Positions 18,613 to 37,428 of a stretch of DNA of 44,070 nt are shown piece after piece; positions within the stretch are counted from its first letter, which is position 1; each line of letters begins with the position of its first letter. The DNA comes from Alloascoidea hylecoeti (Eukaryota): contig BCKZ01000018.1 in the NCBI GenBank assembly GCA_001600815.1, forward strand, positions 525,974-570,043, given 5' to 3'. Below the pieces are notes generated by a model. That model searched no databases, was not told where the DNA came from, and saw only the letters and a list, made by a program, of their open reading frames with translations. The position numbers were made by a program, and so were the translations under genes.

Positions 18613-18721
18613 TTGTGAAGATGTCGGAGGATTACCAGGAAGTTCGGGGAAAAGAAGGCAAAAATTTAATAGAAAGGGAAAAGATGGGGGTGTTGCTTGG
18701 GCGGGTGCGTGGGTGTTCTGC

Positions 18722-18760
18722 GTCACGTGGGCGTGCTGGGTTGCGGGCAGCAATTTTTCA
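18722..18760. promoter_or_regulatory. Cbf1-type E-box (GTCACGTG) and RRPE-like element (CAATTTTTCA) in the MKS1/RRT14 divergent promoter
   Basis: GTCACGTG at 18722-18729; reverse-strand TGAAAAATTG at 18751-18760, just upstream of a ribosome-biogenesis gene. Confidence 0.5.
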
Positions 18761-18794
18761 CGGCGCAGGTTTTACAGAGTGGCAGCACTGAAAC

Positions 18795-19121
18795 ATGAAC
18801 AGGACACAAAACACGGTAGCCAAATTTCTGGCGGAGGTTCTCCCCGAGAGCGCGTCGACGGGAGCGAAGGTCGTGAAGGTCGTGAAGGTCGTGAAGGTCG
18901 CACGGAGAGCCAAGCAGCGAGAACGGAGGCGGAGACGAGAGATCCGGGAGGCCGAGGAGCAGATCCAGCGGGCGGTGGAGGGGCGAGGCCGGGGCCAGGG
19001 CCAGGGCGAGGCCGGGGTGGAGGAAGCAGTTGGGCGACTACGTGGGCGGGCGTCGGTGGACGCGGACGAAGCGATCGGACGGATGCGAAGGGAGCTGCTG
19101 GGGGGGCGGACGGGGCAGCAG

Positions 19122-19159
<38 letters not shown>

Positions 19160-19262
19160 CAAAACACAGAGGACGACCGGCCTGACGACCGGCCTGACGA
19201 CCGGCCTGACGCCTGGTTTGGCACCCGTTGGCGACAGCGACAGCGACAGCGACAGCGACTGA
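18795..19262 (+). CDS. RRT14: Regulator of rDNA transcription Rrt14, strongly GC-shifted and repeat-expanded
   Basis: N-terminal TVAKFLAEVLP and C-terminal GLTPGLAPVG plus acidic/Ser tail are the Rrt14 signatures. It has an ATG start, an upstream RRPE, and lies next to TAO3 as YIL127C lies near YIL129C. Confidence 0.82.
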
Positions 19263-19411
19263 CTTTTCGTGCTATTCTATGCCTATGCTACTTAGTAAGA
19301 TAACAAGATAACCTCCGTGCACCTCTAGCCCTCAGTCTTTGTTTTGTAAAGGAGAAGCTCCGTAGAACCCAAGCACCGACCCCAAGCACCGACCCCGACC
19401 GGCAAGCAGGA

Positions 19412-22400
19412 ATGTACGAACCCTCGCCCCCCCTCTATTCCCCCGTGCAGCTGGTGGGACGCCCTCCCACGGAGCTCAAGTCTCCGGCGGAGTACACCCT
19501 CCACATTCTGTTCACCCAGGTACGTCCATCTTCCATGCCCTCTCTTGGCCATCAGTCTACCACCATCTAACAAGTAAACAGTTCGTCAGATACGCCGAAC
19601 GGAAACTCACTCTTTGCCTGAACTCCCCCATCGACGAGTCTCCCATCGCCAAACTCATAGCCCAAGGCGTGGACCCCCAGTTCGACAAGATCATCGCCTC
19701 GCTGGGCTACGTTGCCCGCCAGAAGCCTAAGCCTGTCATCGACTCCGTCATGTTTTGGCGGAAATCCAAATCTGAAGTCGCTGCAATGGCTGCTTCTGTC
19801 GCCGAAAAAGCGGTTATCCAAGCGAGGGAAGCAAGAAAATCCCTATTACATATAAATTCTTCAAACGCTTCCTCAAATAATAGTTCAAGCAGCATATCCC
19901 ATAAAAGAAATAATTCAAACAAAAGTTTTAACATAAACAACTCTTCAACAATGGATAATAAAAGTGTTGATGAATTACTAGAATCTCATATTGAACAAAC
20001 TAAAAAAATTGCCCTTGATGCTGAAAAGAAATCTCTTGTTTCTATTTATATTTTATGTCGAGTATTAATTGAAATCGTTAAACAAACTCCTCCTGATGTC
20101 TTAGGTGATGATTTAAGAGAAAAATTAGAAGAGATTGTCTTCACCCAGTTGAGAACTACTGATCCAATAGCAATTTCGGTTTCTGTTTTAAGAGCTGAAA
20201 ATTGGAATTTATTTTGTGATCTACTAGGTTATATGAGTGAAAAAAAATTCTTAAGTGTTTCTGATAGATTTATTGAATCTTTGGAAAAAATACCTGAAAA
20301 TATATCAAAAGATGATGCTATTCATATACATGTGTTAATTCATGGTATGAGAAAATTAAGATTATCGGTTTATCCAATTTTAGAAGAATCTGCTGAATTT
20401 ATTGAATCAATTGCTAAATTTTTTAAAAAAACTAAAAATGATCATTTATTAATTGCCTATTGTGAAACTTTATCTTACATGTTATTACCAATTGCTGAAG
20501 TTATAACTGCTGAAGCAAATCATCCAACTTGGGTTACTGCAATAAACAATTTATATGAAAAAGGAATTGATATAATAAATAATGGTAAAATAAAATCTCA
20601 AATTGCTTCAATTAAATTAATTTCTTCAACTTTAAGTGTTTCATCAAAAGATTTATTTACTCCAAATTGGTTAAAATTTATTGAAAATAATTATAATAAA
20701 TTTAAATCAAAATTTTATAAAAATGATTTTATTAATTTAATTTGTCAATTTATTTGGGTTTTAATGTTTAGATGTTCTGAAACTTTAAATAATCAATCAA
20801 GAAAATTAGATATTATTTTTACAAAAATTTTATTTCCAATAAATTCAAAAAAACAATGGATAACAAATGAAATTAATTTATTAATTCCAACTATTCAATT
20901 AATTCGTTTTATATCTTTTAATAATTTACATTATATTATTGATAATGTTATAACACCAATGTTACAATCAAATATTATTATGAATAATCAATTAAATCAA
21001 CAATCAATTTTAGAAAATATATCACAAGAAAAATTAATTATTTCAATTAGATCATATATTGAAATATTAATTGATTTACAATTAAGAAAAAGACCACATT
21101 TCCCAACTGAAATTTTATTAAATGAATATAAAAAAGATTATTTAAATTTTAATTATCAATTTCATCATAATATTTCTTCTGATACATCAAAAATTGAAGA
21201 ACTTGATAATGATAATGATATTGATAATGATGATTTATTATCTCATTATTTTATACCAATTGGTACATTTCATCAAGATTTTTGTCTTATATTTGAAAAA
21301 TTATTTTTAATTTTAGATGTATCAATTGGTAATTCATTAAATTCAAATTCAAATGAAATTTCACAACAACAACAACAACAACAACAATCAAAAACTCAAT
21401 CAACTATATCAAGTCTTGGTTTTCATTTTGGTTCAAGTAATAGTAATAATGATCAATCATCAATTTTAAAATCAAATAATAAAAAAATTTTAAATTATGA
21501 ATTATTTGCAAATTTAATTTATTCAATTCCATGGTGTTTACCACAATCAATTCCATATCCTAAACTTATTGAAGTATTATGTAGAAATTCAATTCATAAA
21601 GATTTAAAAATTTCAAAATCTTCAATAAATTCATTAAAAATTTTAGCTAGAAGATCAAATGCAAGAATTTTAATTAATACATTTGCAAGATTTTCATTTG
21701 ATTTTGATGAAAAATCTTGGATTCATTATGATGCTTCATATTTTACATCAAATAAATTTATATCTTTATTAAAATTATATGTTGATTTATTATATATTTG
21801 GTTAGATTCATTTAAAAAAAAAACAAAAAAAGAATTAAAAGAACAATTACAACAACAACAACAATTAAAATTAAATATTTATAATCATTCAAATTCTTTA
21901 TCTGAAACAAATAATAATAATATAAATAGTAATGGTAAAGAAATTGATAATAAATCTGGTGAATTAGAATGGAAAAATATTATAACAGTTATTGAAGAAG
22001 TTGAAGGAAATGGTTTATTTTTTTTATGTTCACAAGATTGTACAATTCGAAAATTAGCAATATCAATTTTAAAATTAACTTCTGATTTTGATTTAGCTAT
22101 AAAAGAAAGTACTGAATTAAAATATAAAAATATAAATTCAATTAAAGAAGAAAATGAAATTGAAAATGAAATTGAAAATGAAAATGAAAATGAAATTAAA
22201 ATTTCAACAACAACTACAAAAACAACAACAACAACAACAACAACAACAATAAATTCTGATATAACAACAACACCTGGAAATTCTTCAACAACAACAACTA
22301 TAAATTCAAAATTAGGTCATTCAAGAAAACCTTCTGTTTTATTTGCTGAAAAAGGTACAAGATTAGTAAGTATATTTGAATCTTTAGATTATATGGAATT

Positions 22401-25400
22401 ATTACCTGTTTTACCAAGTGATTTAAGTGGTGCAGAAAGACAAAGATTATCAAAATTACATGGAAAGAGAAAAGATTTACTTTTAAAATTAGCAGAATCA
22501 GATTATGGAGTTGATTCTGCTTTATGGTTTAGAGTATTTCCAAAATTATTAACCGTTTGCTTTAATACATGTCCAATGGCAATGGCATTATGTAGAGATA
22601 TTGTTTGTGTTAGATTAGTTCAAATGCATGAATCAATAATTCAATTTGCAGAATCTGAAAAATTAACAACAAGTTCAAATTTAAGAAATAATTTAATAAC
22701 AACAACACCACCAGAAATATTAATTGAACAATGGAAATTATATTTAATTGTTGCTTGTGTTACTGTTACTTCAACTGGTGAACAAAAAATGCATTTACCA
22801 AAAAATTCTAATAATAATAATCATGGTAGAAAAAAATCATTACAAATGTTTACAGTTCAATATCAAAAAATAACATCTGCAAGATCTATATTTATAATGG
22901 TTATACCATTATTAAAATCAGAACATTCAATTGTTAGAGATGCTGTTGTTTCTGCAGTATCATCAATAAATATTAATATTTTTAAAACATTAATTGAATG
23001 TATTGAACCAATTATTTTAAAATGGAAAAATAATATTTATAATAATAATAATTTAAGAAATATTCAAACATTAAATAATAAAATTGATGGAAGATTAAGA
23101 ATTGAATTAACAAATATTTTAAATTCAACAAGTCATTTTTTAAAAAATGAAATTATATATAATGATAATTGGATTTTAAAACAATTAATTTCATTTATAA
23201 AAGATTTAAAATATTTTTTATCACAAAGATTAATTCAATATGATATTGAATATCAAAAATTAAGAAGATATTTTTGTGGTTTATTAGAAAATATTTATAT
23301 TAGTATTAATTTATCAATTAATAAAAAAAATTGGTTACCATTTGAAGGTAGAGTTGCATGTTTTACATTTTTAGAAGAATGGTGTGAACATGGACAATTT
23401 GCAAGTTCTGCTCAAGATAGATATGATTATATGCAAGGGAAACCTGCTTCAAGAATTGAAGCTGGGATGATTAATGCTTCAATCGAATTTGAAAGATCTT
23501 CTTTAGAATATGCTGCTATTAAATGTATGGCTGTTTTATGTGCTGGTCCATTGGTAAAAGAAATTGAATCAACTGATGAAAATGAAAAAATTGAAAAAAT
23601 TGAATCTAATTCTGAATATTTATCTTTTGATATACCTGGTTTAACAGTTTGGTTAAAATCAGTTATTGGTTCAAAAGAAAAAATTCAAAGATTAGGTAAA
23701 AAAGCCCTAATGAATTTATTAAAAGAAAATCCAACTCAATTACAATTTTTTGAAACAATTATATCACAATGTTATGATGATAATAATTCAACAATTGGTG
23801 GGAAATATTTTTTAGTTATATCTGATTTATTAATTAAATTTCCAAATTATCCAATTAAAATTTGTCAAGTTTTTGCATTAGGATTATTTAAAATTGGTGA
23901 TTCAAATTTTGAAGTTAGACAACAAGGTTTTAAATTATTAGAATCAATGGAAAAAAGATTTTGGGGTACAAATTATATTCATGAATTTGAAGTTACTATT
24001 TGTAGTCATTCATTAGCTGTTTATAAAAGATCAATGTTTAATATTTCAACTAGATTTGCAACAGAATATTCAAACGAAAATTATCAAATAATTTCTGAAT
24101 TAACTAAATATTTTCATGTTGTTAGTGATAGATCAAGAAAAGATTTATTAACTGTTTTATTACCTTGGGTTCATACTGTTGAATTAAAAACTGAAGATGG
24201 TTGGAATAAATATCATGCAAATACAATGATGGTTTTAAATAATTTATTTGAAATTACAATTAGATTTGGTGATGTTATTCAAAATGAAGTTGAAGCTCTT
24301 TGGGTTGCTTTAGCCTATGGTGGTAGTCCTGAAAATCTTCAAATAATTTTAGATTTTATAATTCGAAGTAGTTTAGAATTAAAAAATCCAACATTTGTTG
24401 AATATGGAAGACAAGTAATGGTTTATTTAGCAATGGCTCCAGGTGGTACTTCATTAATGGATACTCTTTTAACTTATTTAGAACCAAGAGAAATGATTCC
24501 TCCACAACCAAATGATCGTCATTTACCAGATCAAAATCCTGAAGATATTGATGAATCAAATAAATTACCTTATATTGCAAATTTAACAAATGTTTTAAAT
24601 CATCCTGCAAAAGAAAATTTCTTTTCTCATGGTCAATTGGCATTAATTTTTTTGGTTGATATTTTTACAGTATCAAATGATGTAATGGGGAATAATTTAC
24701 CTTTATTATTACATGTTTCATTTGTTTTATTTGATCATTATTTACCAATAGTGCAAAATCAAGCTGCTGCAATGTTAATACATTTAATCCATGGTTTAAC
24801 AACTCCTGATGAACCTGCTTCTGTAGAAGCAATTAAAATGATTAAAAAACATAGTATAAAAACACCAATTTGGACTTATGATGATTTAAATAGTGAGAAG
24901 AATGGTATTAAAACCCCAAAAGATATGGATGATCTTGTTAAAAAAGTTTTGGAAGCTTTTGCTTCAACTGTACCAGATTTACGTGAACAATGGAGTCATG
25001 TTTCATTAACTTGGGCCACAACCTGTGCTGTTCGTCATATAGCATGTCGATCATTCCAGTTATTTAGGTCTTTATTGACTTATCTAGATCAATCAATGTT
25101 AAAAGATATGCTTCATAGATTATCAAATACAATTTCGGATGAAACTTCGGATATTCAAGGATTTTCAATGCAAATCTTAATGACTTTACATACAGTTACA
25201 ACTGAGCTTGATTCTGAAAAATTAATTGATTTCCCTCAATTATTTTGGACTTCTGTTGCTTGTTTAAGTACTGTTTGTGAACAAGAATTTATCGAAGTAT
25301 TAAATATTTTGGAAAAATTTGTTTCAAAAATTGATTTAGATACAGCAGAAACAGTATCTTGTTTAATATCTACTTTCCCTGCAGAATGGGAAGGTAAATT

Positions 25401-26919
25401 TGATGGTATTCAACCATTAATATTAATTGGATTAAGATCTGCTAATACTTATGATCATACATTAAGACTTTTGGATAAATTGGATCATTTACAAAATAGT
25501 AAAATTATTGGTGGTAGTAATAGATTATTATTATCATTTTTAGCAAATGCTCCAAGATTCTTATATACTTTTAATGAAAAAGGTCCAGGAATTACACAAA
25601 AAGTTATTGATGCTGCAAATCAATTAACTGTTATGGCTGATGCTGAAAATATGGGTGGAATGTCAAGAATAACAACTTCGGTTGCTAAAAATAGATTCAG
25701 AAGTAAAGAAGATTTCTTAAGTCAAAGTGTTCAAGTTATTCAACAATATTTTAGTGAATATGATGCAGAAACTTTAGTTTTCTTATTAGGATTATTATCA
25801 AATAAAATTGATTGGGTTAAAATCGAAACAATGGAATTATTAAAACATTATTTCCCTCTTGTTGATTTACAAAGAGAAGAATTTGCTGGGGTTGGAGCTG
25901 ACTTAATTTCACCTTTATTACGTCTATTATTAACTGATTATGCTGATAAAGCTCTTGAAGTTTTAGATAAAACTGTTAGTATATCTGGAAGTCAAATGGA
26001 TAAAGATATCCTTCGGATGAGTTTGGGTAATAAAACATTACGTAAAGAATATGAAAAGGCTCCTACATTATTCGGTATTCCTGATGAAAGTGGTTGGGCT
26101 ATATCAATGCCTGCTGTAACATCAATGACAACTAGACATAATGTTCATGCAGTGTTTCTCAATTGTGAAGTTCCTTTCAACACTGAAGAAGTTACACCTA
26201 ATGAAGAGATTCAATTTCATATGGAAGAATACTATGTTCCACCAATGCCTGTTGACGATGGAGATCAAGTATCATCTAGTGGTGGAGATAGAGATGCTTC
26301 ACTTAGCCATATGTGGGCTGCATTGGATAACCTCGATAATTTCTTCACTGCTAGCATATCAGGGGTTTCAAATACACCTGCTACAACAGTTCATGGTCAT
26401 TCATATACCACATCAGTTGATACTCGTTATAGTAATGATTCTTCAATTATGCCTGTTGAATCAGCTCCTCAAATATATGACAAGAGCGTTTCTGATATTT
26501 TTAGTAAATTGGCTCGATCACCTTCAGCCGCTTCATTTAGAAAATCATTAGCCGATTCTTTTGGAAATAATCCTGTGCCAACTGGTGAACCATTATATTC
26601 ACAACAAAGAACATCATACATGTCACTTCGTGGTAAAAGAGGGTTGAGAAAGAATTCTATGGTAAACAATCTTAGTAACCCAATTCCCAACTTTTTCGGT
26701 AGTAATCCAACATCCCCAAATTATTCATTCCGTGATGATACTGAATCTATATCAGCAATGATGTCACCCATGGATTCATCTATTCGTCCATCATCTCCAA
26801 CTTCTATTAGATACCATGGTGCAACAGATTCTCTTTCTACTGAAAATGGTGGAGCAAATGGTGATGCGATATTCCGATTTGAAAGCTTATTGAATGGTTC
26901 TGTAAGTGCACGAAATTGA
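19412..26919 (+). CDS. TAO3: RAM-network scaffold Tao3/Pag1 (Furry/Mor2 family); exons 19412-19519 and 19582-26919
   Basis: Exon 1 MYEP...KSPAEYTLHILFTQ splices to FVRYAERKL...DPQFDKII.SLGYVARQKPKPVIDSVMFWRKSKSE. Later motifs include EEVEGNGLFFLCSQD and WATTCAVRHIACRSFQLFRSL. Confidence 0.95.
19520..19581 (+). other. TAO3 spliceosomal intron (62 nt)
   Basis: GTACGT donor, TCTAAC branch, CAG acceptor, phase 0; restores conserved LHILFTQFVR. Confidence 0.9.
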
Positions 26920-27242
26920 AATTGAAATTGAAAAGGTTTATAATTTAAGTTAAAACATTATTTTTTTTTTTTTTTTTTTTGTTATTATTATTATGTTAAC
27001 ATTGTACTCTCCTTTACAAATTTTATGGTTTTTCTGAGTTTCATTTTCATTTTCATTCACGTATATATATATATATATATTTATTAAATCTGAGCGATCG
27101 TACCAATTTATGTTCAAATATGTGTCTTTATATATAATTAAGAGCAATTACTTCCATGTTCAAATCACTTAATTACGGGCTCTCTTACTCTGAATTTTTG
27201 ACACATTTAATCCGTCCATACTCTTGACGTTCCATATAAAGG

Positions 27243-27385
27243 TGGCCGAATATTTAATGCATAGTGGTCAAACTTGGCTAAAAAGACTGATCGAATATTA
27301 TTACATCATGTAGTCTAATGATTCGTTTAAGCTGTGGGCGAATATATTGACCAACAAGTGGCCGCTACTAACACAAAGTATCGTA
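27243..27385 (+). repeat. Dispersed repeat family A, copy 2
   Basis: Similar to the reverse complement of 14481-14620, with internal cgaatat sub-repeats. Confidence 0.65.
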
Positions 27386-27589
27386 AATTACCCACAAACA
27401 CGTAGATTCATCCTATGCTGAGTATTCAGTTTCCACTAGATCGATAATTATATAAAAATAGGGAGCAACGTTTAAACTCGTCATTCTTTCTTTTATTCGC
27501 CTTTGTTAATGCAAATTATAGAATGTAAACGACGACCATTTGAACATCAACTAAAGTTTAATTTACAACTCCGTATAGAAGCAGAAGTA

Positions 27590-27990
27590 TGGATTGATCG
27601 TAGTTACATTCATAATGGTATTATATATGGTAAAATATCAGGAGCGGTAAGATCCTGGAATATTGAAACGGGTCAAAGAATCCAAGAATTTCCATTTAAT
27701 AAAAAAAAACTATAAATTGCTTCGCAGTAAATGATCAATACTTATTTGTTTGTAAATCCACAACCTTTAGGTTGTAGTAGTTACCAACAAATAGGACAAT
27801 TATTTTGTCAGATCGAAGTGTAGACAGTTCAAGTATAAATAATAATAAAGTCTTTTCGGTTGGTGATGTTTAGACTATTAAAATATGGAATATAAATAAA
27901 ATTAATTAAAGAATTTGAAGATCCAGAAAGTTTAAATGAAAAATTAGAATTATATTTTTTACCAATTGATGCTGATTCAAAAAGGCTAGC
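27590..27990 (+). pseudogene. Decayed WD40-repeat gene fragment
   Basis: GAVRSWNIETGQRIQEF, INCFAVNDQYLFV and VFSVGDV*TIKIWNINK/LIKEFE occur in shifting frames with stops. Confidence 0.55.
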
Positions 27991-28539
27991 TGCTTTGTGA
28001 TCTTATGATTTTAGTGACAATTTAAGGAAAAAATATTTAAAACATTTATAATCGATTGAAAATTCATATTTTGTGTAAGAACCTCTGGGGAGTACTCCAA
28101 TATATGCAATATACACATATTTTCAATTGGTTCAGTTGTGTATTTTTATCATTGCACCTATTCAAGACTTCCTCTAAGTTGGTTGCTTATAAGTTACATA
28201 TTTATTATTATGTATTTATTAAGCGGTATAGATTAAATGAGTGGGATATGCCAGTGCTAGTTTCCATGCTTGTTCTCAGTTACGCGCATGGTTCCTATTT
28301 AGTTTAACTGTCTATAATTACTGTTATCGCCTCTTGTGTGTTCATGGCCTGACTAGTGACTACCTTCGTGGTAGCTTTTAAATTTTTTGATCTCCGCTTG
28401 ACACTTTCTATATCCAGCTTTACATACTTTCATTAAAGCGAATTAAATTAATTTATGCTGAGATATTTGGAAGCTATTTAGCACTTATATTGCTCTAGAT
28501 GATTTATCGTTTGAACGTTTCTGGCATTATACATACGAC

Positions 28540-30700
28540 AAACTCAAACAATCGTAATGAATGATAGGAACTAATTGTAAATGACGTTCTAACTATATCT
28601 ATTTATGGAAATGCAAGTTAATTTTGTGGCAAAATGTCCATGTTTGTATGGGATAATGGACATGAGGAATATTTAAGCTATTCGAGATATGTTAAGAATA
28701 AGCAATGTTAGAAAATATTACACCCAAATAAAGTTGGAAAATAACTGAAATTGTAAATTGCCAATTATGGAATGTTCATTTTTGCTAATAAAAATGGACA
28801 TTTTGGAACAAGTGAAGTACAAACTCAGACAAACAATCGCAAGGAAGCAATGACGTGTTCTAAATATTTCCATTTATGGAAGTGTAAGTTAAGTTTATCG
28901 CAGTCCTTGTTTGTAAATATTAGAGTTGGATATTAACTAAAATATTTTTAATTACCAATTATGAAATATTCATTTTTCCTACATAGTAGCTATCAAAATA
29001 TTGGAACAGGTAAAGATGCTCCTTCTGTCACATGTACAATTAATGGCCACTTGTGAAATGCTCACTTTTCTTAACTTATCAGAAGTGTTTTTGCATGTAT
29101 AGGCCTAGTACCATGCATTAGCAGTCGTTTGTACCTCAGCTTAAACGCTGATTATAAATTTAAATATATATTATTATTTTTAATTGGAGTGTTGGCTAGC
29201 CATTTGGTATCCGGTACTTATCCTTCTCAGGTTAAAATATCAAAATCATCTCAATAGGCAAAAATCAGAGTGACGCCAAGTATTTATATACATTTAATTT
29301 CCGCCATTTGTTGTAGTAAGCTGTTTTAATACATCTGTTAATTAAGCGGCTTCTAATAAATAATAATATTAAGCGGTTATTTTGCTCTGACATAATTTAT
29401 TTTTTGAACTTTTCTCGCATACACATACCATTTTTAAATACAAACTCAACCGCAAGGAAAGAAACTGGCAAGGTGCGGGTATATTTATTTATGGACTCTT
29501 AGTAGAGTTTGTCGCAAAATGTCCATATTTGTATGGAATAATGGACAAGAAGGATATCACAAATACGACAAGAATACGCGAGAACAAACGATATCTAAAA
29601 ATATTAAACTCGTCTAGTTATGGATATTTTGGAGCAATTAAACAGGTGAAAAATTCAGATACACTTTTTTTGTTTCTATTAGTGTGCTTTAGACTATACA
29701 TTTTTTATTAATCAGTCAATATGAATTCAAAATCAGCAAATATGTAGTACTGTAAGCTTATAAGTTAGGTATAAATAATATATTAATGCATAAACGTCAA
29801 CTCTTGATATTAAGCTTGCTTCTTTCGATTAAAAATGCGATCTAAAAGTTATAATCAAATATATCAAGGTTAGTTTAATTGACGATGATGTTAAACAATT
29901 TAATCATTCTCAGTTACCTATCGCTATAGGCAGATGCTTCATCGTTTTTAATTATATTATTTATCAAATAATCATTTCTTACAACTTTTTTCAAATTCTA
30001 TTAGTAAGGAATACATTTCTTGGGATCCTCAGGTATATCAGGTATACTTAGATTAAAATTTTTGTAATTCATTTAAGATTAAATAAATATGAATATGAAT
30101 ATGAACATGAACAATACTATCCATAAACTGGCCACTAACTTTTGGTTTAGAATCACACGACGCAGTGTATCAGACATTCACATAACACCCAATAGAATTC
30201 CGATTTATAATGGATTATGAGATGTCAAACAAACATAGCTACTAACTCTGGGTCAAGAAAACGAGTGGTGGGGAGTTGATTCGCCTCAGATGTTCTGACC
30301 AAGCCATTGGGTTTAGCGAACCTTCGAACACAAGGTTACAATTTAACATGAAATCAGGTAACATATCAAATCATTAATCTCTACTAGTACTAGATATTCA
30401 AATAAGAGGGAGGTAGAGGATTCTCCCTATATGGTTAAATAGTTTCTAATTAGAAGTTTTAATTGGAAATTTTATGAAGTTTAAGAATTAAAAAAAAGCT
30501 GTTTTCATTATTATCTGATTAATCGATAAAATTTCGATATCTAATGCTAGAATTTGTTAAATGTTCAATTTCCAATTTTATTCGGGTATTTGCAGGTTTT
30601 ATAGATCTCGGTAACTATTGCCGGCCCTCTTAAATATTTTTTGTCCATTAACCCATACAATTATGAACATTTTGCGACAAACTTAATTTAAAATCCTTAT
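28540..30700. repeat. Dispersed/tandem repeat family B: copies at about 28540-28820, 28820-29015 and 29440-29650 (+) and 30630-30700 (inverted)
   Basis: Core tttgt(g/c)gcaaaatgt(c/t)cat..ttgtatgg..taatggaca at about 28623, 29508 and (reverse) 30642-30681; shared flanks acaaactca...gcaaggaa...atttatgga. Confidence 0.75.
30022..30420 (+). mobile_element. Ty1/copia RT/RNase H relic ending in a polypurine tract
   Basis: Collinear fragments ILRYIRYT (30025), IPIY (about 30197), NIATNSGSRKR and SDVLTKPLG (about 30286; ADxLTKPL motif), then purine run AAGAGGGAGG (30404-30413). Confidence 0.6.
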
Positions 30701-31327
30701 AAGGTAAGTGGAGGTTCCTTCGCGAACGGAAAATTAAAAAATGGAGATCCGGGTAACCTAACAACTAGGTATCATAACCAGTTCGAATATTCACTCATTT
30801 GAACCAATTTTCCATGCTATTTTTATCCTTTGACAAGACTCCAGAACTTGAGGTGGCTTGCAGGTAATCTTCTTATATCCATTCTCTTTTCTGGTAACAC
30901 TACACGTCAAACGGTCAATAATAGCAACAACCCAACATGTCCTACAATTGTTGGGTTTATTGGAAAGGGGCCCAGTGCAGAGAAAAGTTAACTAACATTA
31001 CGTTTACGAATTTCATTTCTTAGAGGTTGAGCCTACTTCGGCGCTTAATACATGTGTACCTATATACAGCTATATTAAGTTTAAAAGTAAAAGTAAAAGT
31101 GATATTATGTTTGTCAAGAGATGTCTAGTATACCGATACCGAATGGTAACACTGTGTTATAATACGATTGTACTAATAACTAATTAAGGACGGATATGTT
31201 TTCCCCTGGCTAAGGAACCTAATAGGAAGATATGCAATTGCAACTGTAGTTTGTGTCTGAAAGTCACGTGTAAGTGTTAGAAAAGATCCCTAACATCCAA
31301 ACATTTAAATGTGCAAGAAAAAATGCC

Positions 31328-31413
31328 TCCCGCATAGCTCAGTTGGTAGAGCGTTCGGCTTTTAGGTTTAAAAGCTGACCGAAATGTCCAGGGTTCGAGC
31401 CCCTGTGTGGGAG
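31328..31413 (+). tRNA. tRNA-Lys(UUU) with a 13-nt intron (31365-31377)
   Basis: Acceptor TCCCGCA/TGTGGGA, A-box TAGCTCAGTTGGTAGAGC, anticodon stem TTCGG/CCGAA with TTT at 31361-31363, T-arm CAGGG-TTCGAGC-CCCTG, downstream T-run terminator. Confidence 0.97.
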
Positions 31414-31439
31414 TTTCTTTTTGAAAAATTCAATTTGAC

Positions 31440-31721
31440 AAGGTCTGGTGTCGATTTCCTACGTAGACTAAGTTTAAGAATATATAAGACAATAATATTT
31501 GAACATTTTATGGGAAAAGATTATCAACTAAATGAAATGATTTGTGATTGCACAAGAAACACAAATGAATTAATTCTATAGGAGAAGCAATTAGAAACTT
31601 GAGAAACAGAAGATTCGGAACAACAACATTAGAATCAACAGACGAAAAACTTTTAACTGTAGTGAAAGCTGACATTAGAAGAATCAATATAAAATAATTA
31701 AATTAGTAAGGTAAAAAAAAA
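31440..31721 (+). mobile_element. Possible 3' end of a non-LTR (L1/Zorro-like) retroelement just downstream of the tRNA
   Basis: Broken reading frame ending GEAIRNLRNRRFG...KADIRRINIK* (weak IWxxRN-like motif), a short 3' tail and an A9 run at 31713-31721. Confidence 0.3.
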
Positions 31722-32379
31722 GAAGGGATTTTTTTGCGCCTTGAGGTTTGAGGTTTGAGGTTTGGGCTTTTACATTAATTGAGCACTCAATTTGCTTCCT
31801 TTTCTCCACTTTTCTCCTTCCTTCGAGCACCAATGTCAAAGGCGACGCTATAATTATAGCGCTAAATGTATTACTTACCGGTATATAGTCCCCTTGTCTC
31901 CTTTAAATTGCTCTTAATGGATGTGTATATGGTACATCTACCACATTATTATATTTGATTTCAATAGGTAATTGCTTAAAAAACCATTTTATATTTTTTT
32001 TCATGCTGAGTATTTGTTACACCATGTGCCATGTGGAGGAAATTAAGTTGATTAATACTTGAGGGTCACCCACCCCGCTTTCCCTTTCTGAGATATTTGG
32101 ATTTCAGTTTTAAATAACTCCCGCTTGATCCTGAAACTACAATGTATTAGATATATGGTATAGTACGATTATAACATTTTGTTTTTGGACCGATGACTGG
32201 TATCAATCATTACATAAAATAAATTAATATTATTAGGCTATAGTGTTGCAATTGGGGCCATCCAAAGTTTATGATAGATCCATATTCTTTCCCTAATATT
32301 GATAATAATTACTATTATATGAATGATCAATTAGAAAGACCGATATAAGCTAAATTAAGGTACAACTAGCTATATTTAG

Positions 32380-32428
32380 TAATTATCACGGTATATAGTA
32401 TAATTATCACGGTATATAGTATAATTAT
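32380..32428. repeat. 21-bp tandem repeat, 2.3 copies
   Basis: taattatcacggtatatagta twice, followed by taattat. Confidence 0.9.
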
Positions 32429-33049
32429 ACTATTAAGAAAATAATTAAAACAAAGTTATAACTTATAAAATACTTGAAATTTTATCGGATAAAGGGCTAT
32501 TGATTGATTTCCCGCTTCTAGCTGAAAAATGTCTTTAATAAACTTCTAATTAGTTATTACATCACAATTATTAAAAGGTTAATTATGAGGATCAATTGAT
32601 GTTTAATTTGTTGTTTTGAACTAAGTCATGTATCATTCTTTACCATGTAACTGGTCATCTAGTCACTCATTATTTGTTTTGATGATCACTAATATTACTT
32701 TATGATTATTAATGATTTATTATTAAGGAGGAGACCAATTAATTCTATGATTTTCATTTGTTTTTGAGAGATTTAATTGATCATGATACATTATTGTTGT
32801 TTTAACATAACTAGCTGAAAACCTCTAGAAGAAACCGCGAATCGTTGCAAATTGGTTCGAGACAAGTCATTTAATTAATCAGTTATTAGGGGTATCATTG
32901 ATGATTGATTTGAAGGTCATTATATACAATTGCACTTTGAGATAACAGATTTTTATGGAACAGCATTAATATTCATTATGATTAATCATTATTTAGACTC
33001 TAGATCTCTTTGTACAAGTTTGTAGTAGATATAAGTTATATCGATCGAG

Positions 33050-34130
33050 AAGTAATTATTATTGATTAAGGTCACAACCATCAAATTCACCCAGTCCAAT
33101 GGATAGGCCCATTTCCCAATTGATTGTATTTGTAATTAATTATGAGCTCGAGGGTTATTAATTGAATCATACATAGTACTGTCCAAGAACCTTTGATGGA
33201 AACGATTGGATGCAGGTGAATATGGATTATGTTGACAATTCTAATAATTATAATAAAATCAAATCTAGTTAATAGATATTTTTCTTCTTTTCCATTATTT
33301 TCTACATCTATAATGACAAATTGACAATTAGGAATTTAAGATAACTATAACTAGATACTAAAACCTTTAATAGAACAAATTTTACAATATTTCATCAAAT
33401 TTAAAGGGATATATCGATATCGATAGTATTCGATACATGAATATTTAAATGTTGTGATTGTAAATATTATAATAGATCGCATAATATAACCATCGATATC
33501 TTTAAAACTGAACAAAATTGATATATAATTATATATGGCTCTGATCTATGTCACTAACCCCCAACTTTAGAGGATGTATATAGCTCGAGGGTCATCATTA
33601 ATTTGATGATATCGATGCCTAAGGGAATCTATTAGAAGGACTAGATTCACCCTTCAAACTCCAGGCCAGTCATGTGAGAAGGATCCATCAGTCGGGCACG
33701 CAACTGCGACGCGCTATAAAACTGCCGTTGCAGGCCGTTCAACCCACATAATTTGCAATTGAGCCTTTTAAATGATGGTGAGGTATTAAGCAAGTTGGGA
33801 TTAAGCTAATTTCACGGTATCATTTGATACTTATCATTAGAGACCACGCGGCTCTGGTCGGGCGTAATGGATATGGCTAGCTGACTACGCGTACGTTTCA
33901 AAATTTGAAGGTTTAAACCATCTTAGAAACTTTCACTATATAATAGATATCATCATCAATTATTAATATAAACGTTTTGGGGTTATTTTCTGTGAGTGAT
34001 TGCTTCACTAGCATTATTTATAAGATTTAAAAACTTAATTATTATTGTAAAATTTAAAGGGACGATCAATATCAATATAAACAATGATAATGAAACTGTT
34101 GCCTTGACAAAAGAAAAAAATTTAGATCAT
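33050..34130 (-). ncRNA. Long structured non-coding RNA, telomerase RNA candidate (ends not defined; may extend to about 32450)
   Basis: Nested complementary blocks 33377-89/34043-55, 33555-64/33977-85, 33604-13/33946-55, 33651-62/33900-11, 33667-72/33882-87 and 33683-90/33865-72, several extended by G-U pairs only on the minus strand. Template-like repeat at 33785-33806. Second branched domain at 33070-33236. No ORF. Confidence 0.55.
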
Positions 34131-34176
34131 TTTCTCATCATTCATCTACTCCTGATATTATCTTTCCATAATTGAT

Positions 34177-34325
34177 TTAACGCGTTAACTATTAATCGTA
34201 CGCGTACTAATTAACGTTAATTAACAATATATTAGAAGTTTTTTAAACGCCTTTTACAATTAGATAAAGAATAATTGTAATCGATCGATATATATCATGA
34301 TCATACTATAGCGCTAGCGCTATAG
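34177..34325. promoter_or_regulatory. Cluster of perfect palindromes including two MCB (ACGCGT) elements
   Basis: TTAACGCGTTAA 34177-88, GTACGCGTAC 34198-207, TAATTAACGTTAATTA 34208-23, ATCGATCGAT 34280-89, CTATAGCGCTAGCGCTATAG 34306-25. Confidence 0.55.
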
Positions 34326-35207
34326 CCGTATAAAATGCCAACTAGTTTCATTATTAATTATTTTCTTATAATATTAATACATTTATATAGGCTTAAGTTT
34401 TCATTTTCCATATCGATTTATTATCGATATCCTAGTTTTATGCCATATATCATTTCGAAAAATCAAATCAGCATGATGATTGTTGATCATCAAATAATAG
34501 TCATGATCATTCATTCATTTTTATAATTATAAAGCAATATAAAAGCATCATTTCTTTAATAGATTAGAATTTATTATAATAAACTTTTTTTATTTTTCAA
34601 TTTCAAATTTCCAATCCTCCGCAAAACGTGATTTAAAGGAAAAAGAAAAAGCAAAAATTGAAAATTGAAATTGTGTTGTTAATCTAGAAATGGCTTTATA
34701 ACTTATAAAATATTTATTATAAATTTATTTACATAATGTAAACATTTAATTTTATTATCGATTGTAATTACAATTGAAATTAATTAACACCAACAAAAAA
34801 AAACAATTTAGTTTATCATCTAATCAATTATAATGATCATAAATATTACCAGTACCTTTAAAATATAACATCATTTAATTAACTATAAACTTTTTTTGAA
34901 TAATTAACTTTTATATACCAATTCAATTTTAAATAAAAGTAACTTGTAAAGATGTAAGATACAAAAAATATCATCATTAGCATATTGTAAACTTTCTATT
35001 TTTGAGTTATTATTTTTTTGAATTTTATAAAATACATCATGAAAAATTATTGGTAAACATATTTCAAGTTTCAAATTCAAACATTAAACTATCATTTTCA
35101 TAATTGTAATTCAATTGTTTAAATCAACTGATTAGTTCAAGTTATAATGAAATAGGTACCATTGATAAGACATCCAATTTAATAAAAATGTAAATTATAG
35201 AACTAAT

Positions 35208-35265
35208 TCAAAAATCAAAAATCAAAAATCAAAAATCAAAAATCAAACTCAAAACTCAAAATTCA
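35208..35265. repeat. (TCAAAAA)n simple repeat
   Basis: About five near-perfect and three degenerate 7-nt units. Confidence 0.85.
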
Positions 35266-35772
35266 AGATAGATAAAAACAGATTAAACACATAATAATAA
35301 ACAAAAAAGGTAAAAAAGATATAAAAAAAATTAAAAATAAACATGACATTTCAAATAACAACAATTAACAAATATTTTTGTAGCAAAAACGTTTAATTTA
35401 GATAATTTTATTGTATTAATGTTTTAGATTTTTAGGATTCAAAATTTAGAATTTTAGAATTCTTTTCAATAAATTTTAGACCCTTTTTTTTCATTATAAA
35501 ACAATATATATGATAAAAAATAATAACAATGTATAAAAAAAAAGAAAGAAAAAAAGAAAAAAGAAGAAAGAAAATAAAAAACATTGGATATGATATATTA
35601 ATTAAAAAAATATACCAATTCTCTTTATATTCCAAAAAATCTATAAACTATAAGTTAATTGATTATATTGTTCACTGTTATATATGAATGAAATTATAAA
35701 TAATAATGATAAGACGGTATTTTCATGATATTGATATTCATAAATGAATATGAAAGAAAAAAAAAAATGATA

Positions 35773-37428
35773 TTAATTTGCAGCTATTGGTTCAATATTT
35801 GAATTTGTAATTGATTGTGCTGGATGATTTGAAATTTGAGAATGTGAATGAGAATTTGATGGTAATGTTTCACTATCAGAACCATTTTCAATCTGGTTAT
35901 TTAAATCATCAATATTATTGACATTATTATTTTTATTATTATTATTTTCATTTATAATTAATTTTTGATTTGATTTCATTTTATATAAATTTATATTTGT
36001 ATTTGTATTTGCAATTGCAATTTCACCAGTATGCCTACGTAAAGTTTCACCAACACTTGCAATTGTTAAAGATTCATCATAATCTTCAGGTATTGGCATA
36101 TCAAAGATTGAAAAAGCAGTCGATGCCCTAGATCTTATTGATTTTGGATGATCATTTATAAAAGATTGTTGAAATTGAGGTTGAGCAGGAGATGATTGAT
36201 AATCAATTGGTTGGAAATTAAATTCTTCATAATTATTAGCATTAGTATTATTTGCGTTATTGTTATTTGTTGAACCATTTGAGTTAAATGGAGAAATTGG
36301 AGAAAGTACTTGTTGTTTTCTCTGTTGAGTAGAATTATTCACATGAGGTGGAGATCTCGAACCATTAATATTCATGTTAAAAGCGATTGAATTAAGAGCA
36401 TTTGTACTATCAGGACTTATTGATCTACTAAGATAACCATTACTTGATATTGAAGAAGTTGTTCTATCTCTATCAAGATTTGAACTTAATGTAGGATGTA
36501 AATTTCTAAAAGAGTCGACTCTTTTGATTGAAAGATTTGAATCTCTTCTTCTGTATGGGCTTGTCGTTCCATTTACATTTCCATTTGGAATTCCATTTAT
36601 TGGAGGATTATTATTATAGATTGCTGAAAGACCAGACATTGAAGGTCTATGGGGAGCACCTGAACCAGGAGTGCATGACTCGTTATTGACGACATCAGCA
36701 AATGAATAAAAAGACAAGACTGGTTTTATCGTATGATTTTGCGGAGATGTTGATAAAGAGGTTGAACCAGAGGTTGAAGTCGGAGGGGTGTCTTTATACC
36801 AGTCTCTTAGGTTCGATGTACTATGCTTTGGGTCTGGTTGCTGACCCTGGGGTTGTGCCTGGGGTTGTGCCTGGGGCTGCGGCTGACCCCCCTGAGATTG
36901 GTACTGACCTTGACAGGGATATGACCCCAGAGCCATGTTCAGGCCAATCACACTGCTTCTACGACGGGCGTAAACCAAATCAACCTGATCGAGGTCCTGG
37001 GAGCTGGTGAGGATCTCGGTGGAGGCATCCAGCACGGGGGGTATAAAATTCTCGTTTCTGTGGTGGAGGGGGATGCTTTGGGATGACCCGTAGTGACCAG
37101 AAAAGCCAGAGAAGCCAGAGAAGCCTGCAAAATGGGAGCCCACGTGGGAACCAGAATGGGAATGGGAGCCCACCGAGTTAATACTGGCATCGTCCAGAAG
37201 CAGAGGCTGCAGAGGATCCTGAACCGACCGCTCGAAGATCAGCGAGGACACGCTTGTGGGTGACGAGGGTGACACAGGTACGGTGGTGGGCAGCAGGGGT
37301 CCCGCACCCGCACCCGCACCCGCACCCGCACCCGCGCTGGCACCCGGTGTGGGCGAGGGCTCCGGGGCAGAGGGCTCCGCAGCGTGTTTCTGGTGGAAGG
37401 AGAACACGTGAAGTCTGTGTGTGGCCAT
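35773..37428 (-). CDS. MLF3: Mlf3/Vhs2-family serine-rich protein
   Basis: First ATG at 37428. Motifs SLIFERSVQD, ENFIPPVLDAS, DLDQVDLVYARRRSSVIGLNMAL and LSFYSFADVVNNE. Divergent from MSK1, as YNL074C/YNL073W are. Confidence 0.85.
   Translation of the reverse strand: MATHRLHVFSFHQKHAAEPSAPEPSPTPGASAGAGAGAGAGAGPLLPTTVPVSPSSPTSVSSLIFERSVQDPLQPLLLDDASINSVGSHSHSGSHVGSHFAGFSGFSGFSGHYGSSQSIPLHHRNENFIPPVLDASTEILTSSQDLDQVDLVYARRRSSVIGLNMALGSYPCQGQYQSQGGQPQPQAQPQAQPQGQQPDPKHSTSNLRDWYKDTPPTSTSGSTSLSTSPQNHTIKPVLSFYSFADVVNNESCTPGSGAPHRPSMSGLSAIYNNNPPINGIPNGNVNGTTSPYRRRDSNLSIKRVDSFRNLHPTLSSNLDRDRTTSSISSNGYLSRSISPDSTNALNSIAFNMNINGSRSPPHVNNSTQQRKQQVLSPISPFNSNGSTNNNNANNTNANNYEEFNFQPIDYQSSPAQPQFQQSFINDHPKSIRSRASTAFSIFDMPIPEDYDESLTIASVGETLRRHTGEIAIANTNTNINLYKMKSNQKLIINENNNNKNNNVNNIDDLNNQIENGSDSETLPSNSHSHSQISNHPAQSITNSNIEPIAAN

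Follow-up and report, generated by a model that had tools for sequence, protein, structure and literature searches.

The question raised by positions 33364-34130 of the window (the whole 44,070-nt stretch of DNA that was analysed) is whether this interval encodes a structured RNA on its minus strand and whether such an RNA could be the telomerase RNA (TER) of the host yeast. Both were proposed in an earlier note on this DNA, made from its letters. Yeast TERs are described in PMC6115765 as evolving too fast for homology search and as unannotated in most budding-yeast genomes.

Nested pairing in an ORF-free region

The interval lies inside an 8.8-kb ORF-free region (26920-35772), one flank of which is a plus-strand gene for a 2389-aa MOR2/PAG1-type protein (TAO3-like, 19750-26919) and the other a minus-strand gene for a 551-aa product without a Pfam family (35773-37428). 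The description of the interval as free of ORFs held, all stop-to-stop frames overlapping it being 64 aa or shorter, and none of the six small frames in or beside it matched Pfam at E <=0.01; a weak WD-repeat match (E 0.073) was obtained for one frame of the surrounding 8.8-kb region. A search for self-similarity indicative of duplication or a transposon returned nothing meaningful, and both were rejected; a 13-nt direct repeat, AAATTTAAAGGGA (33397 and 34050), has no flanking terminal inverted repeats. Regarding the host, all of the best named matches of TOP2 came from Saccharomycotina; they belong to very different clades and show 55-63% identity, and the best named match of YDJ1 showed 51% identity. 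As judged from TOP2, the host yeast is at a broadly similar distance from every named budding-yeast clade. An intron in the TAO3-like gene indicates that GUACGU...CUAAC...AG is used by this yeast.

The candidate RNA and its helices, designated H1 to H6 from the outside inwards, are as follows.

33370-34066, minus strand: candidate RNA, minimal span of approximately 697 nt, bounded by H1, ends approximate, minimum free energy (MFE) z of -2.11
34043-34055, minus strand: H1 5' arm, AAAUUUUACAAUA, perfect 13-bp complement of 33377-33389
33377-33389, minus strand: H1 3' arm, UAUUGUAAAAUUU, pairs with 34043-34055
33977-33985, minus strand: H2 5' arm, UAACCCCAA, 9 bp with one bulged base, overlaps the motif T2 described below
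33555-33564, minus strand: H2 3' arm, UUGGGGGUUA, partner of 33977-33985
33946-33955, minus strand: H3 5' arm, UGAUGAUAUC, 10 bp, perfect
33604-33613, minus strand: H3 3' arm, partner of 33946-33955
33900-33911, minus strand: H4 5' arm, CCUUCAAAUUUU, 12 bp including three G-U pairs
33651-33662, minus strand: H4 3' arm, GGAGUUUGAAGG, partner of 33900-33911
33882-33887, minus strand: H5 5' arm, UAGUCA, 6 bp including one G-U pair
33667-33672, minus strand: H5 3' arm, UGACUG, partner of 33882-33887
33865-33872, minus strand: H6 5' arm, AUCCAUUA, 8 bp including one G-U pair, putative core-enclosing helix
33683-33690, minus strand: H6 3' arm, UGAUGGAU, partner of 33865-33872
33691-33864, minus strand: enclosed core, 174 nt, GC content 0.47
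34180-34205, no strand assigned: two ACGCGT hexamers (34180 and 34200), 125-150 nt upstream of H1 in the minus-strand sense
33887: third ACGCGT hexamer, within the candidate RNA

All six nested complementary blocks of the earlier note were recovered, and the core, which it had placed at about 170 nt, agrees well with the length measured here. Its argument that several pairs exist on the minus strand alone was also borne out: five G-U pairs in H4, H5 and H6 correspond to C-A mismatches on the plus strand, where H4 retains just 8 contiguous pairs. The energy of the six-helix scaffold was -37.9 kcal/mol on the minus strand versus -26.1 kcal/mol on the plus strand, the former being better by 11.8. 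In the predicted ensemble, H1 was the sole strong helix, with a probability of up to 0.99, and the probabilities of the remaining helices were 0.02 (H2), 0.19 (H3), 0.04 (H4), 0.24 (H5), and 0.29 (H6); forcing all six together raised the energy by approximately 15 kcal/mol above that of the unconstrained MFE structure. H4 to H6 as putative core-enclosing helices combine G-U pairs specific to the minus strand with ensemble probabilities of 0.04-0.29. When a three-way junction was looked for, the AT-rich insert of 165 nt between the 3' arms of H2 and H1 formed two hairpins in the constrained MFE structure.

The score for nested pairing was that of the optimal chain of co-linear helices, each at least 6 bp long, between two arms, with local dinucleotide shuffles as the null. 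For the arms defined in the earlier note, the chain score on the minus strand was 83 versus 46.8 ± 6.4 in shuffles, none of 300 of which reached 83, and that on the plus strand was 73 versus 48.3 ± 6.1. These arms are a post hoc choice, and the test was rerun with untuned arms of 330 nt, which gave a score of 103 on the minus strand (z 4.67, 0 of 100 shuffles) and of 78 on the plus strand (z 1.51, 8 of 100 shuffles). Calibration at 70 evenly spaced positions of the window on both strands, amounting to 140 tests, yielded z values with a mean of -0.08, an sd of 1.11 and a maximum of 3.27, none of them reaching 4. The locus is not unique by raw nested-helix score: a score of at least 103 was found at 14 of the 1442 window positions, the majority of which fall in coding DNA rich in repeats or in a GC-rich island, and ten other high-scoring positions that were re-tested had local z values of 1.77-3.99.

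Folding energies were little better than those of shuffled sequences, a comparison that the earlier note had suggested as a check on its proposal. The MFE z of the 767-nt interval was -1.27 on the minus strand and -1.48 on the plus strand, and the respective values for a 281-nt core segment were +0.27 and -0.35, at the level of chance. Those for the 697-nt RNA were marginal, at -2.11 on the minus strand (1 of 80 shuffles as low) and -1.71 on the plus strand (5 of 80). Such conventional energy measures provide weak evidence at most.

The centre of the nested pairing coincides with the GC peak of the ORF-free region. The mean GC content of this region is 0.286, and its maximum, 0.45-0.47 in 200-nt windows at 33551-33900, corresponds to the core and its surroundings; its sole other GC peak is an intron-containing tRNA gene (31327-31414). 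Of the six ACGCGT sites that the 44-kb window contains, three are grouped at the 5' end of the minus-strand candidate and in the sequence upstream of it. This hexamer corresponds to the MluI cell-cycle box, an element of G1/S promoters in yeast.

Taken together, a structured RNA on the minus strand receives modest support from the pairing, which is strand-specific and exceeds both the shuffles and the calibration, and gains little from the MFE, which lies near that of shuffles. We consider it probable that such an RNA is encoded here because of the nested pairing specific to the minus strand, its position at the GC peak, the lack of a coding signal, and the promoter-like cluster of motifs.

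Template candidates and possible telomerase-type elements

The elements that bear on a possible telomerase function are listed below.

33785-33806, minus strand: template candidate T1, GCUUAAU-CCCAACUU-GCUUAAU, 7-nt repeat with a period of 15
33806-33840, minus strand: hairpin proposed as the template boundary, outer helix CUAAU/AUUAG, inner hairpin GUAUC/GAUAC, arms abutting T1
33842-33859, minus strand: hairpin GACCA-GAGCCGCG-UGGUC, 5' margin of the core, probability of 0.75-0.81
33976-33991, minus strand: template-like motif T2, AAAAUAACCCCAAAAC, contains UAACCC, begins and ends with AAAA at an 11-nt spacing
33375-33381, minus strand: weak match to an Sm site, AAUUUGU, 3' end of H1, loose pattern only
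33519-33512, minus strand: Sm-like site AAUUUUGU, loose pattern only

The direct repeat of GCUUAAU with a spacing of 15 nt, on which the earlier note had based its template, is present at 33806-33785. Each 15-nt unit contains five C and one G, and the predicted structure leaves T1 comparatively open, its mean paired probability being 0.39 versus 0.58 overall, which places it among the 4.5% least-paired windows of 22 nt. The terminal redundancy of T1 is not significant. A direct repeat of at least 7 nt with a period of 6-30 occurred in 312 of 2000 shuffled cores (15.6%), and the core itself holds a second such repeat, AAUGAUA with a period of 14, at 33838. Further copies of the 15-mer were not evident in the window, in which 2 matches with up to 3 mismatches were found versus 1.73 expected.

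The arms of the proposed boundary hairpin, CUAAU and AUUAG, were found at 33840-36 and 33810-06, as proposed, and the inner GUAUC/GAUAC hairpin had a probability of 0.47-0.68; however, that of the outer helix was 0.02-0.11. AUUAGC, which includes the 3' arm of this helix, is predicted to pair preferentially with the 3' GCUUAAU of T1 itself (0.5-0.97). In addition, a G-rich segment in the 3' arm of H2, AAGUUGGGGGUUA (33567-33555), is complementary to T2 as well as to the T1 core CCCAACUU, and pairing of the latter with AAGUUGGG (33567-33560), which adjoins the 3' arm of H2, competes with a probability of 0.4.

The earlier note had reported neither a canonical pseudoknot nor an Sm site, and the searches made here found no triple-helix pseudoknot and no strict Sm site. 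The core contained no typical triple-helix arrangement of two U-runs and one A-run; its only runs are UUU, AAAA, and UUUU, in an order that is incompatible with the canonical pseudoknot. The best H-type option, UAAAA/UUUUA with CAAUUGC/GCAGUUG, has no U-rich crossing loop, and a loose search of the whole RNA returned 532 combinations, all AT-rich, located outside the core and non-specific. The candidate RNA may have a non-canonical or undetected pseudoknot. Strict Sm patterns (AAU4-6GG and AU5-7G), consensus patterns that do not derive from the snRNAs of the host, had no match when the minus strand was scanned from 34400 to 31500. A 5' splice site (GUAUGU, GUAAGU, or GUACGU) was not found nearby on the downstream minus strand, the sole match being located at 31878, 1.5 kb downstream.

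Membership in the telomerase RNA class is not established; neither a triple-helix pseudoknot nor an Sm or splice site was found in canonical form. The covariance-model search proposed in the earlier note yielded no relevant Rfam match at E <=10 in 31700-35700, Sacc_telomerase included, and only a tRNA passed the gathering threshold in the whole window; this miss is expected for a telomerase RNA from outside Saccharomyces. The models for SRP, RNase P/MRP, U1, U2, U3, and snR30 were rejected as identities, none of them giving a match at E <=10 with permissive filters, and the 5'-end motif of U1 is absent from the minus strand.

Competing explanations for the locus

Telomerase RNA with the 15-nt template T1 is the leading identity of the candidate, to which we assign a probability of roughly 0.35. 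It leads because the RNA is approximately 700 nt or longer, has no Rfam match, and carries a single-stranded, C-rich, redundant element in a helix-enclosed core; its odds are held down by the lack of a recognised pseudoknot and of an Sm site, by a boundary helix predicted to be unstable, by a redundancy at chance level, and by the presence of a rival motif. The telomerase-specific evidence is weak. The step from a structured RNA to a telomerase RNA with a telomere of (GGGATTAAGCAAGTT)n was not strengthened.

One alternative is that no dedicated RNA is encoded here. The AT-rich intergenic DNA would then hold complementary blocks that match by chance or descend from an ancient inverted duplication, and the GC-richer patch would be either regulatory DNA, such as that containing the ACGCGT sites, or what is left of a decayed gene, within a gene-free region of unusual length. 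The 3.7 kb of AT-rich DNA around the locus holds 204 inverted pairs, and the raw nested-helix score is matched at the 14 positions mentioned above; the MFE of the core does not surpass that of shuffles and that of the whole RNA is marginal, ensemble probabilities do not exceed 0.24 for four of the six helices, the locus was picked by the earlier reader from a scan of 44 kb, and the ORF-free surroundings of 8.8 kb may contain decayed genes, one frame there giving the weak WD-repeat match (E 0.073). Nevertheless, the minus-strand z of 4.67 exceeds the calibrated maximum of 3.27 from 140 tests, the five mismatches in the helices are all G-U on the same strand, which has a two-sided chance of 1 in 16 if mismatches are strand-neutral, the centre of pairing falls on the GC peak, and the residual arm-to-arm similarity between blocks that is typical of a decayed palindrome is lacking. 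We regard this explanation as somewhat unlikely. An alternative that accepts the RNA and shares the structural and GC evidence of the telomerase explanation is that of another structured non-coding RNA on the minus strand, either a lineage-specific lncRNA or a known class too diverged for Rfam, in which the template repeat would be coincidental. The T1 repeat is a chance event at 15.6%, neither the pseudoknot nor the Sm site that define a telomerase RNA was detected, and the host is distant from its named relatives (TOP2 55-63%, YDJ1 at most 51%), so covariance models could miss a diverged member of a family. Against this stand the negative results for the SRP, RNase P/MRP, U1, U2, U3, and snR30 models (E <=10), the lack of the U1 motif, and the scarcity of other large structured RNAs; to our knowledge, budding yeasts possess very few structured RNAs of at least 700 nt besides telomerase RNA and the large snRNAs. 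An RNA of this kind appears rather unlikely.

It is also conceivable that the RNA is a telomerase RNA with T2, AAAAUAACCCCAAAAC (33991-33976), as the template, in which case the repeat would be an 11-nt unit of the type GGGGTTATTTT and the prediction of 15 nt would be wrong. T2 falls where the predicted ensemble is least paired, has termini of AAAA at a distance of 11 nt, is accompanied by a small AGUGA/UCACU hairpin 5 nt upstream, and carries UAACCC, which is reported in PMC6746865 as conserved in 10 aligned TER templates of the Yarrowia clade. However, the motif is the 5' arm of H2 and is situated outside the enclosed core, approximately 75 nt from the putative 5' end, and its redundancy is just 4 nt, consists of A only and occurs in an AT-rich context, so that chance is a likely source. 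A T2 template is very improbable on this evidence.

Returning to telomerase RNA with T1, the non-coding RNA of at least approximately 700 nt that runs from 34066 to 33370 on the minus strand would be the telomerase RNA of the AT-rich host. Its 5' and 3' parts would pair via H1 to H6 to form a long terminal arm, and this arm would close the GC-richer core of 174 nt, within which GCUUAAUCCCAACUUGCUUAAU (33806-33785) would serve as the template. A telomere end of ...ATTAAGC would anneal to the 3' GCUUAAU of the template, the reverse transcriptase would copy AAGTTGGGATTAAGC until it reached the boundary that the 33840-33806 hairpin would impose, and the extended telomere end would re-align, generating (ATTAAGCAAGTTGGG)n. 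Transcription, every structural role, and the telomere repeat are what we infer from the elements, the strand asymmetry, and the statistics described above.

The predicted repeat may be written as TTA-AGCAAGTT-GGG-A. A "TTAGGG split by spacer" pattern has been described for deep-branching yeasts in PMC12449055 and PMC7857110, and the predicted repeat, as read from the template, would fit this TTA-spacer-GGG arrangement. The 15-mer, in six rotations, did not occur in the main text of the literature searched, and among the matches listed for six 10-mers in literature text, none was related to telomeres by title. The repeat was also absent from the supplement text of PMC7857110 and PMC10100673. 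The 22-mer template had no match in collections of genome contigs and viral contigs, where yeast telomeres are not expected; one match among metagenome contigs was discarded as chance, being located in a phage-like coding region with only those 22 bases in common.

A more far-reaching reading would be that of an unusually compact TER of approximately 700 nt from an isolated and fast-evolving lineage, without a recognisable triple-helix pseudoknot or canonical Sm site, that specifies an unreported 15-nt repeat, ATTAAGCAAGTTGGG, as an intermediate between the TTAGGG type and the long Rap1 type, with 33567-33555 acting as a built-in mask of the template. In its entirety, this reading is unlikely.

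Significance and comparison with known telomerase RNAs

Whether yeast telomeres diverged from TTAGGG stepwise or in a "runaway" manner is debated, according to PMC12449055, and a verified TER and repeat from the host would add a data point to this debate. A verified TER would also supply a directly testable template. If the telomerase explanation is true, it would provide a telomerase RNA from a lineage for which no telomere repeat was reported in the literature searched; if it is not, the locus would be an ordinary curiosity, at most another uncharacterised candidate for an intergenic RNA.

In the TLC1 RNA of S. cerevisiae and the TER1 RNA of K. lactis, the 5' and 3' regions form a long arm that closes the template core. 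The candidate would resemble them in its predicted long 5'/3' arm and in a core with a C-rich, terminally redundant, single-stranded template and a hairpin just 5' of it; it is also intergenic and without a sequence homologue, and its U-rich Sm-like site adjoins the 3' end of the terminal helix. Unlike these RNAs, it has no recognisable Est1 or Ku arm and no triple-helix pseudoknot, its Sm-like site has three U only, and its boundary helix is predicted to be unstable. It is also approximately 700 nt long, not more than 1000 nt, and yeast TERs are "usually >1000 nt" according to PMC6115765. The list of telomerase RNA elements used for this comparison was taken from PMC6746865 and PMC3592445.

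With the TERs of filamentous fungi and fission yeast described in PMC3592445, the candidate would share the general arrangement, in which a template is combined with a boundary element, a pseudoknot, and helices that enclose the core. It differs from them in the P6/P6.1 junction with its 4-bp stem and NUNGN loop that this paper reports, and also in the formation of the 3' end, which is made in those RNAs by spliceosomal cleavage (PMC3592445), whereas the candidate has no 5' splice site nearby downstream. A likeness to SRP RNA lies in the two halves, which would pair as a nested rod around a GC-richer apex; unlike SRP RNA, the candidate has no match to any SRP model (E <=10) and no GNRA-capped helix 8 motif.

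The TERs of the Yarrowia clade, as presented in PMC6746865, offer the remaining comparison. Their repeats are 10 nt long (TTNNNNAGGG) and their template contains UAACCC, which is lacking in T1 and present in the candidate only in T2; their conserved three-way junction and CS3/CS4 pseudoknot were defined by an alignment of 10 species. An imperfect Sm site is also reported there for the Yarrowia TER. The candidate shares this imperfection with them, together with an origin in a deep-branching yeast and a predicted repeat of the TTA/spacer/GGG type, and in both, one or two core-enclosing helices would place the template.

ORF-free region and GC-rich island

The candidate telomerase RNA, a putative structured RNA on the minus strand at approximately 33370-34066, lies within a region of 8.8 kb (26920-35772) without ORFs, which is remarkably long for an intron-poor yeast. 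Two features were noted in this region:

27476-27712, plus strand: frame with a weak WD-repeat/Utp21 match (E 0.073)
31327-31414, plus strand: tRNA gene with an intron, the anticodon of which was not resolved by ARAGORN

Decayed genes or a centromere-type region could be present in this interval.

On the plus strand, one flank of the ORF-free region is formed by a TAO3-like gene of the MOR2/PAG1 type, and its GC-rich first exon is located in an island (18650-19520) that reaches a very high GC content of up to 0.72 in 300-nt windows, against approximately 0.31 for the genome. The top nested-helix scores of the window, which are chain scores of co-linear helices, come from this island. The following features belong to it or to its border:

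18795-19262, plus strand: frame of 155 aa with several short tandem repeats and a Pfam match to RRT14 (E 2.7e-08)
approximately 19520-19582: intron of the TAO3-like gene (GTACGT...CTAAC...AG), directly after the first exon

Short repeats around the candidate

Three of the six copies of ACGCGT in the 44-kb window were found inside 320 bp (33887, 34180, and 34200), at and upstream of the 5' end of the candidate RNA. Approximately 250 nt upstream of the candidate, in the sense of the minus strand, a perfect 18-nt palindrome, TATAGCGCTAGCGCTATA (34307-34324), is adjoined by ATCGATCGAT. A 13-nt direct repeat, AAATTTAAAGGGA, was present at 33397-33409 and 34050-34062, adjoining both arms of H1, the outermost candidate helix, and no terminal inverted repeats, which would point to a mobile element, accompanied it. 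A tandem duplication with a 21-nt unit (TATA..TAATTATCACGGTAT) occupies 32371-32431 and has the 9-mer TCACGGTAT in common with the hairpin that adjoins the template candidate (33812-33820); this 9-mer occurs three times on the plus strand (32386, 32407, and 33812) and once on the reverse strand (43440).

Matches and pairing of the template candidate

The 22-mer of the template candidate is identical to positions 675-696 of a metagenome contig with phage-like genes, in which it falls within coding sequence resembling a deaminase motif. The contig was rejected as a relative of the window, and the 22-base identity was attributed to chance. Within the candidate itself, the G-rich segment AAGUUGGGGGUUA (33555-33567, minus strand) has two possible partners, namely UAACCCCAA, the 5' arm of helix H2, and the template core CCCAACUU, the latter pairing having a predicted probability of 0.4. 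The dual pairing could represent a switch or a coincidence.
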